Assembly (NCBI GenBank): GCA_963717935.1
Contig: CAVQXP010000004.1
Location: forward strand, 576,001 to 640,000
Source: Candidatus Eiseniibacteriota bacterium
Lineage (GTDB): Bacteria > Eisenbacteria > RBG-16-71-46
Reading direction: 5' to 3'
DNA length: 64,000 nucleotides
Part shown: positions 21,001-33,000 of the stretch, in pieces
How the letters are laid out: each line of letters opens with the position of its first letter
Numbering within the stretch: position 1 is the stretch's first letter
Made by a program: the position numbers

Positions 21001-24000
21001 GTGCCGCGGGTCCCGTTCGTCCTGGTCGGAGAGGGCCGGGCGCCGGCGTGGGACGTCCCCGCCGAGCTGGCGCCACTTTACCGCTCCCCGCTCCCCGTGG
21101 AAGAGCGCGGCCTGCGCACGGCCGTCCGCCGCGCGCTCGCAGCGAGCGCCGACACCGCGAACTGATCCGGCCCCGCGACCCGGTGCGCCCCCGGGAGAGC
21201 CGCGCCCGCGGCCGACGCGGCGCATGGGTCGTCCAGGCTATGCCTCCCCGATCTTCCCGTCGCCACCGGCCTTCGCGGTCGCCCCGGCCTTCGCCTGCTC
21301 CTCGGCCTCCATGCGCGCCCACTCGGCCGGGTGCTCGCGGCGCAGCTGTTCCTCGTTGATGAGCCCTGTCACCCAGGCCCAGTTCATCGGATAGACGTCC
21401 GGGTTCAGCATGTTCTGGTAGACGTGCCAGACCAGGATGGCGACGAGGGCCAGCCAGGCCTCGTAGTAATGCACCAGCGTGGCCAGGTCGAGGACCCACT
21501 TGGGCATCCACTGGAGCGACTGGTTCGCGAACCAGAGCAGAACCCCCGTCACGGTCATCAGGATCACGCCCCAGACCAGGGACCAGTATTCCGCCTTCTC
21601 GATGTAGGTGAAGCGGTCGAAGGCCGGCGGGTCGCGGCGCAACCCCACCAGGTACAGGATGTTGGCCCCGGCCTCGCGCACGTCTCGCAGCCCCGGCAGC
21701 AGGGCGACGAAGGTGCCGCGACCGCGCCGGGTGAACAGATGGGCGACGTGCACCAGGGACGTCCCGACCAGGACGACCGCGGCGACCCGATGGATGAGGC
21801 TGCGCCAGGCGAAGGCCCCCTCCAGGCGCGCCATCCACGAGAACGGCCACGACTCGGGGAACTTGAGCGCGAAGCCGGTCCAGATCAGGGCGAAGAAGCT
21901 GATCATCAGCAGCGCGTGCTGGATCCGCTCGCTCCGGTTGGTGCGCTCGTACCAGCGCCCCAGGCCTCGCTCCGGCTCCACCTCGCCGCGGTAGAGCCGG
22001 TAGTGGCGGCGCAGCTTGCGGGTGAAGTCCAGCCCCTGATGGACGGCCATGCTCCCGCCGAGCCCGAAGATGAGCCAGAGGTAGATCAGCCGAACGTAGT
22101 AAAGGACCGGGCTGCCGGCCGTGGCGATGACGACATGCACGGGGCCCAGCGCCGACCACTTGCCGGCGCCGGGATGGCACTTGCCGCAGGTCTCGCCCAG
22201 TCGTTCCGGGTTCACCGCAGAGCGCGGGTCGCTCGAGGGCAGGATGTCGTGGAAACCGTGGCAGGAAGAGCAGTTAGCGACAGCCTTCGAGCCGCCACGT
22301 GAGGCCAGACCGTGGAAGGAATCACGATATGTCGTGAGTCGGCCGGCCGGAAGACCGTAGGTCTCGCGGAGTCCCTGGGCCTCGTGGCAACGCGAGCAGG
22401 TCGTATTCACCGCGGAGGCCACGACCGGCGAGGCTGGATCGTGGGGCCCGCGGATCAGGTGCTCGCCGTGGCAGTCCGTGCAGTTGGGCGCCGCGGTGAC
22501 GCCGCGGCGCAGCGCCTGGCCGTGGATGCCCGTTTCAAAGGCCGCGAACTCGCGGGTGTGGCAACGCCCGCAGGTGTGCGGGACGTTGGTGCGGAAGATG
22601 GATGACGTGGGGTCGTTCGCGCGCTTCAGGTCGTGGCTCTCGTGGCAGTCGCTGCAGGTGGCCGCGCGCGGGTCTCGCGAGCGCCCGTGCACGCTCTTCG
22701 TGTAGAGCGCGTAGGCCTCGGGGATGGTGATCCGGCGCCGGGTCATGAGCGCGCGGTTCGCGTGGCAGCGGGCGCAGGTGTGCGGCAGGTTCGCGCGGTT
22801 GACCGGCGAGGCGGGGTCCGTGTGCGGGCGGATCGAGTGGAATGGCCCGTGGCAATCCTTGCAGGTCGAGGCCTCGGGGTCGCCGCGCGCGAGCGCCGTG
22901 CCGTGGACGCTGCCCTGGTACTGCCCGGTCACCTGTGCGTGGCAGCCGACGCAGGCGTCCGGGCCGGTTCGCGCGGGCCGGCGCACCTGGTGCCCCGACC
23001 CGTGGCAACCCAGGCAGGCCACCTCGTGCGGGCCCGCGGCCTGCCGGTGGGCGCTGCCGGCAATGGCGGCGGTCGCATCCTGGTGACAGGTGCCACACTG
23101 GACCTGTGGCAGGGCGGTCGCATGCGGCAGGCCCTTCACGCCCCCGTGGCAGGCCACACACGCCAGCCGCCCGTGCGGGGAGGCCTCGAGTTGTGCGAGG
23201 TCCACGTACGCCGTGCCCCCGCCGGAATCGCGCGCGAGGGCTCGATCGACGTGGCAGGTCATGCACACGTCGTTGCCGAGCGGCCCGGCGAGCGCGGGCA
23301 GGGCCAGGAAGGCGGCGAGCAGCGCAGCCGCCATCGCGTTTCCCCCGGCCCGGCGCGGTCGCGCGCGCACCACGGTCCCGGCGCGCGGGGCCGCCAGCGG
23401 TGGAGAAGCTCGGTTCACGCCGGATGGCCTCCAGAAGGAAGAGGGTGTGGCCCCCCCCCGGACAAGGAATGGACCACGGAAGACCTTTTCTGGCAAGGTC
23501 TTCAAGCGGCCAAGTCGTCAGGTGGTAACGGGGGGCCGGGATGGTACCTTCGGATGTCTTGCCAGCGAGGCGCCAATTCAGTAGAAATACTGATGTCTGG
23601 GACGGCGCGGGGCCGCTCGCCGGCTCCCCGGCCCGGTCCTGTGCAAGGAACTCGCGGCGTTCGAGCGGTCCGTAGTTCTACCGAATCTTCGACGTGTCCC
23701 TTGCCGGAATTGGTTACTCTCCGAGACAGGTCTCGTGGGTCGCACGCGACGCCTCGACCTCGTGTTCTCAGGTGGGCGGTTACCTTCAAGGCCGGAGGGG
23801 CTGATGATCAAGAGCATCTTCGCGTTCGTCGTGCTGGGGGTGCTGGCGGTGGGCGCCGCGTCGCGGGCCGCGGACGCTCCGAAGGCGGACGCGCCGAAGA
23901 ACGACTACGTCGGCACGACCCTGAAGACCTGCATGTGCCACTACAAAGAGTTCAAGGCGTGGTCGGCGACCCCGCACGCGCACGCCCTCGAGACCCTGCA

Positions 24001-30000: not shown

Positions 30001-33000
30001 TGCGCGCCTCCTCGATGCGGGCGTGATAGTCCTCGGTCGGGATGGGGATGGCGTCGGCCTTCACGACCAGCGCCACGGCCTTGTCCACCTCGTCCGCCGC
30101 CGTGCGGTAGTCGGACCCGATGCGCCGGCCCAGGTCGAGACGGCGTGAATCGCCCTCGTGGCAGAGGACGCACGAAGTCGCCAGCCGTTCGGGCCGGGTG
30201 GCCTGCACGGCGTGGGCCCCGTGGCAGGTGGCGCACTCGGGGCGCCGGCCGCCCGCCTGACCGCCGGTGGCGGCCGCGGCCGCGTGCGCGCCCGCGGCGA
30301 GGTAGCGCCGCTCGACCGTGTGGCACCGCCCGCACACCTTGATCACCGAGCCCGCGTCGGGCGGGGCGGCGCCGTGCGCGCCGTGACAGGAGACGCAGGT
30401 GGGCGCGCGCAGGTTGCTCTTCCCGGCCAACTCCTGCGCGTGCACGCTCGACTCGTACTGCCGGAAGACGTTGGGTCGCCCGCGCGGTCCCATGAGCACG
30501 GTGTCCCCGTGGCAGCGCCCGCAGGTGCGCGGGACATGGAGCGCGTACGTCGAACTCGCGGGGTCGCGGGTCGCGAGGATCTCGTGCGCGCCATGGCAGT
30601 CGGAGCACACCGCGACCCGGTCGTCGCCCCGCGCGAGCCGTCGCCCGTGCCCCGAGATCTGGTAGAGCGCGTACGAGTCCACGGGCAGGCCATAGGGGCG
30701 CATCCGGGCCTCGTCCGCATGGCACGAGGCGCAGAGCTTCGGGATGTCCCGGCGCGCGGGACGGCCGCGGTAGTCGCGGCCGTGGGCGACCGCGGCGTCG
30801 AGGCTGCGGTCGTCGCCGCCGTGGCACGAGACGCAGCGCACGCCTTCGGGGGCGTGGCGGCTCTTCTCGAACTGGACGCGCTCGGCCGGGTGACAGATGC
30901 CGCAGCGGCCCGAGGCCGCGGTGACGGCCGCCGATCCCGCCGCAGGCGCGGGCGGACCGGTCTGCGCGTGAGCGGTCGGGGCCGTGGCGGCCAGGAGCAG
31001 GAGAGCGAGCGCGGTCCTCATCGCCCTACCTCCGTTCGAGCAGCGCGCCGAGCACGCTGAGCACGAGCCACGCTCCGAGCACGGCAACGCCGGCCAGCCG
31101 GATGCGGCGCCTTCGCGGGCGGGTCTCCTCGCCGCGCAGCCACAGCGGCATGAGCAGCACCGCGATGGCCGCCGCCAGCAGCACGAGCCCGCTCAGCCAC
31201 GCGGGCACGGGCAGGTGCTGCAGCAGGACATAGGGGGCCAGCATGTACCACGGCGGGCGCGCTCCGCCGGGCGTGGCGTAGGGGTCGGCCGCGCCGTGGA
31301 AGCGGAAGGGCAGCAGCGTGGCCAGGGTGACCAGCACGGCGAACAGGCCGACCGTGAGCATGGTCATCGAGTAGACGTGCTCGCGATAGTGGATGGTCCG
31401 CTCGTCGCGCACCGCCTCGGCCCGGCTCAGACCGACGCGCCGCAGCGTGGCGAAGGTCAGGTAGAGGAAGCCGGCGTAGAACACCGGCAGGACCATCAGG
31501 TGCAGCACGTAGAAGCGGATCAGCACGTCCGCATTCACGGTCCGTCCACCCAGCAGGAAGGCCAGCACCGGGCCGGCGATCGGGATCGCCCACACGACCT
31601 CCAGCCCGCGCACCGTGCTCCAGTAGGTGTGCGAGTCCCAGATGAGGAGCCTCCCGGTGAAGTCCGACTGGATGACCACCCAGGTCGTGGCCACCGCGCA
31701 CCACCACAGCACCTCGCGCGGGGCGCGGTACAGACCCTCCCAGAAGAACCGCAGCAGCCGCAGCACGATGACGCCCACCAGCAGCCACGAGCCCCAGGCG
31801 TGCATCTGGTGGATGAACCAGCCGCCCGGCAGGTCGCGCACGATGGTGCGCGTGCTCTCGAAGGCGGCCTCGGGCGTGGGCCGGTAGTAATAGGCGAGCA
31901 GGACGCCCGTCACGATCTGCAGGCCGAACAGGATGGCGGCCAGCAGTCCCAGCGCGCGCGCGCCGTGCGCGTAGCGGGGCACCGGCTCCGCGGCCACGTC
32001 GCGCAGTACCTCGCGCACCGGTTTCTGCGTGTCCACCGGCGTGTAGACCAGGCCGAAGTGGGTGAGGAAGGAGAAGATCTCGCTCAGGTTCACGCGCTGC
32101 TCGAGCCAGTCCACCCAGCTCCTGCGCGCGGGCGGGTCCTGCCGGCCGGGCCCGTTCATACCTGGACGAAGATCTCGCCGGCGCGCACCGATGCCGGGTA
32201 GCCGGGCAGCGGCCGGGGCGGCGGGCCGGAGAGCACGTTGCCCGAGAGGTCGAAGCGCCCGTCGTGGCAGGGGCAGACCAGCGTCCTGCGGGCCGGGTCG
32301 TAGCCCAGGATGCAGCGCACGTGGGTGCACACCGCCGAGAGGGCCAGCACGCGCGTGGCGTCGAGGCGGATCACGTAGAAGGGCGTCACCCCGTGACGCA
32401 CGAGGCGGCCCTCGCCCACGCGATAGTCATCGAGGAGCCCCGCGCTCACCGTCCGCTCGGAGTCGCGCTCGCGCTTCTCGGGGGCCTTGAGGTAGGCGCC
32501 CACCACGGCGACGGCGCCGAGTCCCCAGAGCGCGAGGAACGCCTGCGAGAGCACGGTGAGGAAGCGGCGCCGGTCCGGTGGCGTGGACGCCGGCAGGTGG
32601 ATCGGCCGGTCTTCGGGGATCGGCATGGGACCTCGGACGGGGTCGGGGCGCAGGCCGCACGGGCGGGTTGCCGTCTCCACTGGCCTGCGGCCGGCCAGCG
32701 CCCCGCGCGTGGCAAGAAGTCCAGGCAGCATCATAGTCCGGGACCCGCACCCGGCCAATGCGATTCGAGACCCACGCCCGGCCCGCCCGACGCCGCCGGT
32801 TTCGCTCGACCCGCCAGTCCATTTGCGTTATGAAGTCCCTCCTATGATGCCCCGTGCCTGGATGATCGCGCTGGCCGCGGTACTCGCGGTCTTCCTGCTG
32901 CCGGGCGGCGCCTTCGCCGCGAGCGGCAGCCCGGACATGCCGCCCCTGCTGCTCGCGCTGGTGCTGGTGCTCCTCGGTGCCCGGCTGGGAAGCGCGCTTG

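Follow-up and report, generated by a model that had tools for sequence, protein, structure and literature searches.

A predicted menaquinol-draining island in an uncultured Eisenbacteria bacterium, with a cytochrome b that lacks both inner-haem ligands

How might a menaquinone-using bacterium without a detected haem-copper oxidase use five multihaem cytochromes that are encoded beside a Rieske protein and a cytochrome b? This question is raised by a 64,000-nucleotide stretch (the window) from the metagenome-assembled genome of an uncultured bacterium, Candidatus Eisenbacteria. Within 21238-31087, five open reading frames (A, B, C, D, and E) contain 13, 3, 19, 18, and 9 CxxCH motifs, or 62 in total, and they adjoin the cytochrome b gene (F) and the Tat-Rieske gene (G). 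After shuffling the residues of the same five proteins 1,000 times, the mean number of motifs was 0.35 and the maximum was 3. Genome-wide, just nine open reading frames have two or more CxxCH motifs; these hold 84 motifs, of which 62 are in A to E. The features are listed below, with haem numbers predicted from motifs.

21238..23334, minus strand: A, 698-aa protein of the CbcL/MtrH/MtoC type, in which a 13-haem periplasmic domain precedes a di-haem cytochrome b of the FdnI/HydC type (13 CxxCH; PF01292)
23804..24367, plus strand: B, small periplasmic cytochrome c554-like protein, three CxxCH and one CMCH (PF13435, E = 1.3e-16)
24389..27229, plus strand: C, 946-aa fusion of a 19-haem domain with a di-haem cytochrome b of the FdnI type, the second protein of the CbcL/MtoC type (19 CxxCH; alignment to A)
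27326..27673, minus strand: STAS-domain protein of the anti-sigma-factor-antagonist type (PF01740, E = 5.6e-8); membership in the system is uncertain
27941..29773, minus strand: D, membrane helix, NrfH-type tetrahaem head, OcwA/NrfA-like body, and c7/c3-like tail, 610 aa, 18 haems (PF03264; PDB matches)
29774..31021, minus strand: E, 9-haem cytochrome that occupies the cytochrome c1/f position; signal peptide, octahaem-HAO-type fold, long helices at the C-terminus, and a single membrane helix there (9 CxxCH)
31026..32159, minus strand: F, fused cytochrome b (b6 + subunit IV), 377 aa, Qo motif PPWY (PF00033, 109 bits; PF00032, 32.6 bits)
32156..32626, minus strand: G, Rieske 2Fe-2S protein; twin-arginine signal (RRRF), then a membrane helix; cluster-binding boxes CTHVRC and CPCHDG (PF00355, 45.1 bits)
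32730..32758, minus strand: promoter-like site 5' of G, a match to a sigma-70-like consensus

The survey's finding had placed all seven genes at these positions and had given the same motif counts. Its domain assignments are correct, as judged by profile and PDB sequence matches, and an inner-membrane, quinol-linked multihaem cluster is still the best reading. What it said about the novelty of the CbcL-like protein, about F and D, and about a route to the cell surface was wrong or incomplete, as described below.

The genome is 93% complete, and genes that appear to be absent could be unassembled. With that proviso, we found no match to the mono-haem cytochrome c families PF00034 and PF13442 or to COX1, as the survey had reported. 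PF00034 is indeed common in the family, with matches in 87 of the 88 other genomes (the earlier table had 85 of 88). The only oxidase that we detected is cytochrome bd, in one copy, and there is a single cytochrome b gene of the F type. The genome also contains two matches to the futalosine pathway, NuoD, and genes for cytochrome c maturation.

We propose that the region is a respiratory island with four quinone-facing inner-membrane modules, each connected to periplasmic c-type haems. Through these four different modules, electrons from quinol would probably reach 62-63 c-type haems, and the likely role of the modules is to drain menaquinol to acceptors of different potentials in the periplasm and outside the cell. 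For the whole of this proposal, we see the chances as about even.

Two of the modules are A and C. Counted from the methionine at codon 58 of a longer open reading frame, A has 698 residues, and it scores 60.5 bits against PF01292 (cut-off 30.1). It is a single open frame, as the survey had it, with 13 CxxCH in each of the nine relatives that we checked (9/9). By alignment, the haem-binding histidines H18, H57, H155, and H169 of FdnI correspond to H473, H515, H622, and H637 of A, and all four are invariant across 10 orthologues. Relatives of A are found at no fewer than 564 loci in species-representative genomes. C is a paralog of A (29% identity over 692 columns). The survey had noticed this relationship and described the cytochrome b match of C as weak, but the alignment covers the entire membrane domain and all four FdnI-type histidines are matched, so C is a full di-haem-b fusion. 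C has matches at 54-70% identity in loci from other phyla.

The CbcL/MtrH/MtoC family, as described in PMC6295460 (Zhong and Shi 2018), spans 15 phyla, with 3-23 haems and 416-1034 amino acids. The survey's description of A as having the CbcL architecture in longer form is right about the architecture, but the cited range means that the length is not new. Because Table S2 of that paper lists 19-haem members with nearly the same haem spacing as C, C appears to be a second full member of this family. A count of 13 haems, as in A, does not occur among the 142 rows of that table.

B ends 21 nucleotides before C, and its hydrophobic N-terminus resembles a signal peptide. The survey counted three haems; the three CxxCH motifs are there, but this count is incomplete, as the CMCH lies where more distant four-haem orthologues have CKMCH or CKTCH and is a likely fourth site. 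Counting it, the cluster likely binds 62-63 c-type haems. The STAS gene adjoins C in just one of 80 outside loci, and that locus is from the same genus.

The gene content, the motifs, the lost ligands, and the conserved operon are observations; for cofactors, complexes, direction of flow, and acceptors, we infer the following. In A and C, the FdnI-like di-haem cytochrome b would take electrons from menaquinol across the membrane and into the protein's own 13- or 19-haem chain, and B would be a small periplasmic carrier that is produced together with C. The outward route is probably a cluster elsewhere in the genome, in which an MtrA-like 10-haem protein is encoded beside a 519-amino-acid protein and a 6-haem protein. 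The survey presented a full predicted route from the quinone pool to the cell surface. Such a route is no more than inferred: the 10-haem protein scores 164 bits against the DmsE/MtrA family, under the cut-off of 192, and the 519-amino-acid putative porin had no family match in the profile search.

The same modules could instead run inward, with electrons from a partner organism, from extracellular Fe(II), or from reduced humics passing through outer-membrane cytochromes and the CbcL/MtoC- and NrfH-type proteins to menaquinone, and then to cytochrome bd under micro-oxic conditions. Homologues of CbcL/MtrH/MtoC are present in Fe(III) reducers as well as in Fe(II) oxidisers, and the parts of PMC6295460 cited here give no sequence feature that separates the two directions. 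Having a quinol oxidase as the sole detected oxidase would also fit. On the other hand, when an FdnI-type module reduces menaquinone from donors at the level of Fe(II), the membrane potential opposes the reaction, and a Qo-type Rieske site without haem bH offers no obvious reverse path. We consider electron uptake unlikely.

The other two modules would be formed by G, F, E, and D, which are one tight operon. The spacing between genes is -4 nucleotides for G-F, 4 for F-E, and 0 for E-D (the start codon of D immediately follows the stop codon of E). All 30 family genomes with sufficient flanking sequence have the genes in the order G-F-E-D (the locus in a 31st ends at a contig border), and two loci from Acidobacteriota have the identical order. 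The survey had flagged the borders of D and E as unchecked; they hold in 31 relatives. Across 89 family genomes, 35 have both A and D, 7 have D only, 2 have A only, and 45 have neither; these genomes are related, so the counts are not independent. Within 20500-33500, the sole match to a sigma-70-like promoter is the site upstream of G (the mean in shuffled sequence was 0.3). In a relative with about 90% identity, contigs from an RNA library cover D to G, and one of them (7,042 nucleotides) corresponds to 27941-32577. Expression of D-G in this relative is thus possible, though DNA carried over into the library could also give such contigs.

D begins like NrfH, as the survey had recognized when it called D an NrfH fusion. 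The head scores 49.3 bits against PF03264 (cut-off 24.1) and matches NrfH in the PDB (2j7a_C, E = 3.2e-7). All 32 of the 32 sequences compared have the haem-1 motif C-x2/3-CH-x-M with its methionine, and residues K99, K100, and D125 do not vary. What was missing from the earlier description is that the middle of D matches cytochromes of the OcwA/OmhA/NrfA type and that D comes fourth in the operon that starts with the Rieske gene. Residues 242-465 of D match residues 273-501 of OcwA (6i5b, E = 1.2e-14), and the predicted fold matches NrfH, OmhA, and OcwA. E has nine CxxCH motifs, a number shared by all 31 relatives compared. Its model (pLDDT 83.8) resembles HAO (6t5e, E = 2.9e-3) and an HAO-like protein (6h5l_A, Z = 10.9, 268 aligned residues). 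No structure match for the models of D or E reached a Foldseek E value of 0.001.

Since E and D have the folds of enzyme families (HAO/ONR and OcwA/NrfA), a catalytic role is possible: either or both might reduce a soluble compound of nitrogen or sulfur (for example, nitrite, hydroxylamine, NO, sulfite, or tetrathionate) with electrons from the Rieske/cytochrome b pair. D matches MccA and NrfA as well as OcwA and OmhA, and E matches HAO, HAO-like proteins, ONR, and IhOCC. Also, a similar proposal has been made for the anammox complex Kuste4569-4574 (in the portion of PMC12954380 cited here). However, OcwA and OmhA are themselves described as metal reductases (PMC9250108), and the CxxCK motif is absent. 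Outside the motifs, E has nine invariant histidines and one invariant methionine for its nine haems, and D has 13 invariant and four near-invariant histidines plus methionine for its 18. By this count, which comes from sequence and not from a haem-containing structure, these residues roughly equal the haems in number, so no haem seems clearly open, besides the NrfH-type haem 1 of D. We think that a periplasmic enzyme is quite unlikely.

F is cytochrome b6-like, as the survey stated, but it has lost both ligands of the inner haem, which had been overlooked. We located the ligand positions by aligning F to cytochrome b6 (6rqf_I) and to mitochondrial cytochrome b (7jrg_C). The ligands of the outer haem (bL), H120 and H220, are kept, while the positions for the inner haem (bH) are R134 and T235. 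F and all 120 of its 120 nearest relatives have the pattern HRHT or HRHS (121/121), and in a separate alignment of relatives, 31 of 31 F sequences have HRHT. More broadly, among representatives of clusters at 50% identity, the helix-B site is arginine in the 14 most similar full-length sequences, and 122 of the 151 rows in this set have HHHH. The clade with arginine has a support of 100 in both FastTree and IQ-TREE; one member inside it (P0256) keeps all four histidines. D-like proteins (33-40% identity, with 11-17 haem motifs) are encoded next to four-histidine cytochromes b in loci from NC10, Elusimicrobia, and Deferrimicrobiaceae, so D alone does not explain the loss.

These substitutions suggest that F does not bind haem bH. 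That F might instead hold this haem with other residues or with ligands from another subunit, and so act in an ordinary menaquinol:cytochrome c reductase, is very improbable: Acidobacteriota relatives do retain one of the two bH histidines (in helix D), and F has two extra, nearly invariant histidines (H117 and H261), but the canonical positions are arginine and threonine or serine throughout the close relatives, H117 is on the outer side, one turn from a bL ligand, and the loss of just one bH ligand in Pyrobaculum was taken by Kao and Hunte (2014) to mean that the haem is absent (PMC4122944).

Returning to the proposal that menaquinol is drained outward, menaquinol would be oxidised at a Qo-type site between G and F. 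The first electron would go from the Rieske cluster to the membrane-anchored E, and the second to haem bL of F. Because bH would have no ligands in F, the second electron would stay on the outer side of the membrane, and the textbook Q cycle would be impossible. It might leave via the NrfH-type head of D or go back via the Qo site. D keeps the features of the NrfH quinol site and would move electrons along its 18 haems. A complex of G, F, E, and D would then be a non-electrogenic quinol:multihaem-cytochrome oxidoreductase that releases scalar protons only.

Like other members of the CbcL family, A and C have an N-terminal periplasmic array of CxxCH motifs, and their C-terminal part is a membrane domain that resembles FdnI/HydC and has conserved histidines. 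CbcL itself (GSU0274) has nine haems and 619 amino acids, versus 13 and 698 for A, while the haem spacing of C is close to that of 19-haem entries in Table S2 of PMC6295460, such as a 951-amino-acid protein from Gemmatimonadetes.

The N-terminal 180 residues of D resemble NrfH from the NrfHA complex (PDB 2j7a and 2vr0), with one membrane helix, four CxxCH, and a CxxCHxM for haem 1. The fold match has a probability of 1.00 and a TM score of 0.52-0.57 on the NrfH side; the score against the NrfH equivalog, 62.3 bits, is under the cut-off of 134.2. Unlike NrfHA, there is no separate NrfA gene: D adds 14 fused haems and is last in a Rieske/cytochrome b operon. D also matches the fold of OcwA (6I5B) and OmhA, multihaem reductases from the surface of Gram-positive bacteria that reduce metals (probability 0.96-0.99), but OcwA is a nine-haem protein of the outer cell wall, and D would be anchored in the membrane by its NrfH-type head.

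The cluster GSU2930-2937 of the metal reducer Geobacter sulfurreducens (ExtKLMNOPQS, or the "bc complex" cluster) also combines a Rieske protein and a cytochrome b with multihaem cytochromes (12, 10, 5, and 2-4 haems), and its function is still unproven (PMC2825233 and PMC5877670). ExtP is the top NCBIfam match of F, yet the score is 142.6 bits and the cut-off is 290. In contrast to the Geobacter cluster, F is a fused b6/subunit IV without bH ligands. D and E match ExtM and ExtN weakly and are not equivalent to them, and the Eisenbacteria locus has no porin, rhodanese, or selenoprotein genes.

As described in the cited part of PMC12954380, the anammox complexes Kustd1480-1485 and Kuste4569-4574 are similar in that a multihaem cytochrome with a membrane helix replaces cytochrome f/c1. 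They also contain an HAO-like octahaem protein, and E has an HAO-type fold. The low-potential electron in those complexes was proposed to serve something besides quinone reduction. They differ in having a split b6 and subunit IV and a cytoplasmic-side NAD(P) oxidoreductase, a subunit that the Eisenbacteria locus lacks, while the Eisenbacteria locus has the loss of inner-haem ligands and the NrfH-headed, 18-haem D.

The closest precedent for F's ligands is Pyrobaculum, in which a naturally occurring cytochrome b of the Rieske type is missing one bH histidine, a change that was interpreted as loss of the haem (PMC4122944). That protein is archaeal and has lost one ligand, whereas F belongs to a bacterial clade with arginine in helix B, in which both ligands are gone from the Eisenbacteria branch. 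Kao and Hunte's survey discarded every sequence that was missing any of the four histidines (PMC4122944), so the arginine clade that includes F would have escaped it.

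Seven respiratory genes and a STAS gene lie between 21238 and 32626. Long spurious open reading frames are frequent in this window because its G+C content is about 72%; genes were chosen by third-position G+C and motif content. The genes of the cluster, which we call A to G apart from the STAS gene, are listed with their number of CxxCH motifs.

Genes of the multihaem respiratory cluster
21238-23334, minus strand: A, multihaem array fused to an FdnI-type cytochrome b, 13 CxxCH
23804-24367, plus strand: B, small c554-like protein, 3 CxxCH
24389-27229, plus strand: C, multihaem array fused to an FdnI-type cytochrome b, 19 CxxCH
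27326-27673, minus strand: STAS-domain gene
27941-29773, minus strand: D, NrfH-headed multihaem protein, 18 CxxCH
29774-31021, minus strand: E, multihaem protein, 9 CxxCH
31026-32159, minus strand: F, cytochrome b
32156-32626, minus strand: G, Rieske protein

These proteins contain 62 CxxCH motifs in total; when their sequences were shuffled 1000 times, the mean was 0.35 and no shuffle had more than 3. All of the cysteines in A, D, and E are inside CxxCH motifs. Across the 3.02-Mb assembly (5 contigs, 93% complete), nine ORFs contain at least two CxxCH motifs, with 84 motifs in total. The motif counts, the shuffles, and this genome-wide scan bear out the CxxCH counts and coordinates in the survey's finding, which had described a quinol-oxidase cluster here. 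Its interpretation also holds in outline, but it overstated the novelty of the CbcL-like genes (A and C) and missed the loss of haem ligands in the cytochrome b. Altogether, 62-63 c-type haem sites are encoded with four different quinone-type modules: two FdnI-like, one NrfH-like, and one of the Qo type (Qo is the outer quinol-oxidation site).

The cluster is flanked by a PD40/TolB-like beta-propeller gene (19643-20635, minus strand) and a CPA2 Na+/H+ exchanger gene (32556-34193, plus strand). We considered each of these as a member of the cluster and rejected both, as neither was ever beside A in 80 outside loci. A class II (B12-dependent) ribonucleotide reductase of 1065 amino acids, with a TSCPD domain, is encoded just downstream of the cluster (16031-19228, minus strand).

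The main interest of the cluster is a conserved Rieske/cytochrome b complex that lacks the ligands of the inner haem b (bH), is joined to an NrfH-headed 18-haem protein, and is the only bc-type complex of the genome. CbcL fusions of the same kind as A and C are already known, and the conserved loss of the bH ligands is the most unusual feature of the cluster.

In each of helices B and D of cytochrome b, the first histidine is a ligand of the outer haem (bL) and the second is a ligand of the inner haem bH. This assignment is consistent with PMC4122944. We used phmmer to align F to b6 from spinach (6rqf_I) and to mitochondrial cytochrome b (7jrg_C), and helices B and D aligned without gaps. His120 and His220 of F are opposite His86 and His187 of b6, and Arg134 and Thr235 are opposite His100 and His202. 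With arginine and threonine at the positions of the second histidines, F lacks the ligands of bH. Of the four axial histidines that define the bc1 and b6f complexes, F has only H120 and H220.

We then compared F with its 120 nearest representatives at 90% identity (63-93% identical to F). Among these 121 sequences, 119 have the pattern H-R-H-T and the other two have H-R-H-S; F and all 30 of its family orthologues have H-R-H-T. Because the pattern recurs across relatives, an error in a single assembly does not explain it. The Qo motif, a variant of PEWY, is PPWY in 118 of the 121 sequences, and PPWY is listed among the natural variants of this motif (PMC4122944). F is similar to ExtP (NF040969), a protein of the Ext cluster of Geobacter, at 142.6 bits, which does not reach the cutoff of 290 bits.

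At a coarser level (representatives at 50% identity), four histidines are present in 122 of the 151 rows (query included in the 151). Arginine is at the helix-B site in the 14 full-length representatives that are most similar to F, and most of these keep the histidine in helix D. The arginine-bearing rows form one clade of 18, with a support of 100 in each of two trees, one built by FastTree (150 rows) and the other by IQ-TREE (47 rows). One member of this clade (P0256) genuinely has four histidines, so a single origin of the helix-B arginine is likely rather than demonstrated. Outside this clade, three representatives (P0263, P0277, and P0369) lack both bH histidines and have HFHL, HFHI, and HIHV instead, which hints at independent losses of the bH ligands; two of the three are on long branches.

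A second type of Rieske/cytochrome b/multihaem operon is about 30% identical and has four histidines and PEWY. Of the 19 outside loci with a cytochrome b, 15 have this type next to A-type genes. In one of these, from a closed genome of the same genus (G063), the four-histidine operon lies between the STAS gene and D and is oppositely oriented. This extra operon, with its Rieske, PEWY-type cytochrome b, and multihaem genes, is at about positions 2800-5500 of the locus (L017). The COX1 match in G063 is broken into five pieces in different frames. The genome that we studied contains only the haem-poor type, with F as its sole cytochrome b.

Kao and Hunte, in the main survey of the Qo motif, described the four histidines of cytochrome b as invariable and removed sequences without any one of them; in the available parts of their paper, they mention only Pyrobaculum as having lost one bH ligand (PMC4122944). 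In the literature that we searched, which did not include subscription-only papers on the phylogeny of Rieske/cytochrome b proteins, we found no description of a bacterial cytochrome b clade without bH; the remark on Pyrobaculum was the only related mention. Nor did we find a description of the Rieske/NrfH/multihaem operon in that literature. Either may have been described before.

The conservation of the Rieske operon is strict. The stop codon of G overlaps the start of F by 4 nt, E begins 4 nt past F, and D starts directly after the stop codon of E. The sole promoter-like match in 13 kb, which is a consensus match only, is just upstream of G. D was found in 42 of the 89 family genomes, and we took neighbourhoods from 31 of these 42, picked for their available flank. 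All 30 of the family loci that are not cut by the end of a contig have the order G, F, E, D. E has nine CxxCH motifs in 31/31 loci, and D has either 18 CxxCH motifs or 17 and one CxxxCH. Two loci from Acidobacteriota (L084 and L087) contain G, F, E, and D in the identical order, and a locus from Binatia has E and D at the end of a contig.

G has the Rieske boxes CTHVRC and CPCHDG, the Tat motif RRRF, and a match to PF00355 (45.1 bits). In four loci (L118-L121, from family genomes G048, G053, G046, and G036), box 2 of the Rieske protein is CPCDGG, not CPCH: aspartate replaces the second histidine ligand of the 2Fe-2S cluster, and box 1 is kept as CTHLRC.

Two RNA-library runs from one freshwater-sediment study contain contigs from a relative that is about 90% identical. 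One contig of 7042 nt spans 27941-32577, and two shorter ones run from D to E (1891 nt) and from E to G (2156 nt); DNA carry-over is possible, and these contigs cannot show a transcript. Two DNA runs (X1 and X5) had short pieces only. Each of the sequencing runs holds a small share of the stretch (0.17 or less).

At its N-terminus, D has a membrane helix (residues 35-53), followed by an NrfH-type tetrahaem head (PF03264, 49.3 bits versus a cutoff of 24.1 bits; NrfH structure 2j7a_C, E = 3.2e-7). The motif for haem 1 is CGTCHVM, and we take the methionine of this CxxCHxM motif to be the ligand of haem 1. The form C-x2/3-CH-x-M is found in 32/32 orthologues and in 11/11 D-like proteins from other phyla. 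K99, K100, and D125 of D are also invariant. Against the NrfH equivalog (TIGR03153), D scores 62.3 bits, which does not reach the cutoff of 134.2 bits, and we recognized no NrfA partner among the scanned ORFs of the genome with at least two CxxCH motifs. Residues 242-465 of D align to OcwA (6I5B; E = 1.2e-14). OcwA is described in PMC9250108 as a nine-haem surface reductase of Thermincola whose C-terminal half is NrfA-like.

The gene for E follows the cytochrome b gene, and E is a candidate for the membrane-anchored c-type subunit that would accept electrons from the Rieske protein. Besides a signal peptide and nine haems, E has three long helices and a membrane helix at its C-terminus (model pLDDT 83.8). 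By fold, it best matches octahaem proteins of the HAO type (6t5e, E = 2.9e-3; 6h5l_A, Z = 10.9 over 268 aligned residues). The AlphaFold model of D (pLDDT 73.7) matches NrfH and then OmhA and OcwA, with E = 2e-3 to 8e-3. Foldseek searches of the PDB with the models of D and E gave no match at E = 0.001 or better, and we treat the structural matches to NrfH, OcwA, and HAO as weakly supportive and in agreement with the sequence matches. In a VIA-align search with E, many rows fit only the C-terminal helices, and we disregarded these.

In both D and E, the number of invariant histidines and methionines outside of the haem motifs is roughly equal to the number of haems, so the sequences suggest no clear open catalytic haem apart from the NrfH-type haem 1. 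Also, D-like proteins with an NrfH-type head and 11-17 haem motifs are found beside four-histidine cytochromes b in loci from NC10, Elusimicrobia, and Deferrimicrobiaceae. The link between NrfH-headed multihaem proteins and Rieske/cytochrome b thus predates the loss of bH. A complex prediction for F, residues 1-182 of D, and four haems (score 0.00, mark 0.32, run without controls) is no evidence either way.

The CbcL-like genes A and C are additions to a known family. Zhong and Shi report 142 homologues of CbcL, MtrH, and MtoC across 15 phyla. These have 3-23 haem motifs and are 416-1034 amino acids long, and CbcL itself has nine haems in 619 amino acids (PMC6295460). The periplasmic N-terminal arrays of A and C, with 13 and 19 CxxCH motifs, are both within the range of this family. 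The membrane domain of A matches PF01292 (Ni_hydr_CYTB; 60.5 bits versus a cutoff of 30.1 bits) and FdnI (1kqf_C; E = 1.1e-4). When A is aligned to 1kqf_C, H473, H515, H622, and H637 of A are opposite H18, H57, H155, and H169 of FdnI, which we take to be the haem b ligands. The four histidines of A do not vary among ten orthologues, and C has a counterpart of each. The survey's finding had described C as only weakly similar to Ni_hydr_CYTB, and C does score below the cutoff (23.2 bits). However, C aligns to the whole membrane domain of A and has the four histidines, so it is a second complete fusion.

We compared A and C with CbcL, MtrH, and MtoC by their architecture, and the haem positions in Table S2 of PMC6295460 provide an indirect link, for C only. 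The haem spacing of C is nearly identical to that of the 19-haem group in this table (906-952 amino acids). The 13-haem, 698-amino-acid form of A is in none of the table's rows. Comparison with CbcL, ImcH, ExtM, and ExtN via NCBIfam gave sub-threshold matches only. The form of A is common even so: the best match to A has an E value of 1e-200 or better in 37 of the 89 family genomes, and 50 of the 89 have a match at E = 0.001. Relatives of A are also found in at least 564 stretches from species-representative genomes of many phyla. As has been proposed for CbcL, A and C may each move electrons between menaquinol and the periplasmic haem chain of the same protein.

Between these two genes, B has CMCH around residue 43 of its 187-amino-acid form. 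The corresponding position is CKMCH or CKTCH in distant orthologues (L028, L025, L031, and L024), each of which has four CxxCH motifs, and CMCH is common to the window, L016, and L017. The first haem site of B seems to have been contracted to CxCH in this genus, which would make B a tetrahaem protein. A functional contracted haem motif was reportedly described by Ferousi et al. in 2019. B has a match to the UshA-like (seleno)protein family, in the haem part of that family. Outside the window (G000:C4:1197143-1198324), the genome encodes a 393-amino-acid protein (L012) with four CxxCH motifs, in which a nucleotidase-like N-terminal part is followed by a c554-like haem domain; it scores 236 bits against the UshA-like family, whose cutoff is 275 bits.

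The genome, which is 93% complete, has no match to COX1, PF00034, or PF13442. It encodes one cytochrome bd, and NuoD, cytochrome c maturation genes, and two matches to the futalosine pathway for menaquinone are present. The NuoD match (PF00346; G000:C2:151947-152769, outside the window) is split into two adjoining pieces in different frames, which points to a frameshift or a misassembly in the complex I operon. Among the other genomes, 87 of 88 in the family have PF00034 and 4 of 7 in the genus have COX1. The absence of mono-haem cytochrome c families, as noted in the survey, is real for the assembly, from which 7% of the sequence is missing.

Elsewhere on the same contig is an MtrA-like cluster, which encodes a 10-haem DmsE/MtrA-like protein, a 519-amino-acid protein, and a 6-haem protein. 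The 10-haem protein scores 164.4 bits against TIGR03508 (DmsE/MtrA), versus a cutoff of 192.2 bits. Its 519-amino-acid neighbour has no match in Pfam or NCBIfam. In a language-model search, this protein was nearest to outer-membrane barrel clusters of the Atlas, under the recognition mark; in one of these clusters, 55% of the members have MtrB_PioB.

We propose that menaquinol is oxidized at the Qo site of G-F-E-D and that one electron would pass via the Rieske cluster into E. Because G-F-E-D lacks the transmembrane branch, a Q cycle would be impossible. The second electron might go to D, or it might go back through Qo. The loss of bH would fit an organism without a high-potential oxidase chain, which perhaps respires acceptors near the potential of menaquinol; with such acceptors, an electrogenic branch could not be paid for. 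Electrons could flow through the island in either direction, because relatives of the MtoC type serve Fe(II) oxidizers (PMC6295460).

A more specific idea, which we consider unlikely, is that G, F, E, and D are one four-subunit complex that has kept the splitting of electrons at Qo and has swapped the Q-cycle branch for a second wire of c-type haems. The high-potential electron would move from the Rieske cluster to the nine-haem E, and the low-potential electron would move from bL to the NrfH-type haems of D at the membrane surface and then along its 18 haems. If this is true, it would deliver periplasmic electrons well below the potential of menaquinol, for poor acceptors such as crystalline Fe(III) oxides, and it would amount to a quinol-based form of electron bifurcation ending wholly outside the cytoplasmic membrane.

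The four histidines that ligate the haems of cytochrome b are regarded as invariable. A widespread and conserved bacterial clade without the bH ligands, always encoded together with two multihaem cytochromes (one with 9 haems, the other NrfH-headed with 18), would offer a natural experiment: does a Qo site without a Q cycle send two electrons sequentially to the Rieske branch, or does it use a second outward wire? This bears on the anaerobic respiration of acceptors that are too near the potential of menaquinol to pay for proton pumping, and on what Rieske/cytochrome b clusters do in Geobacter and in anammox bacteria. Because the genome has no Rieske/cytochrome b complex other than the haem-poor one, and no cytochrome c oxidase was found, the role of this complex should be readable from the physiology of an enriched relative. 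To our knowledge, Eisenbacteria have no cultured member. The CbcL-like genes indicate that they carry parts for extracellular electron transfer.

There are precedents for parts of this arrangement. In Geobacter, the GSU2930-2937 cluster has Rieske and cytochrome b genes amid multihaem cytochromes (PMC2825233 and PMC5877670). For the anammox complexes, use of the low-potential electron outside of a Q cycle has been proposed (PMC12954380).
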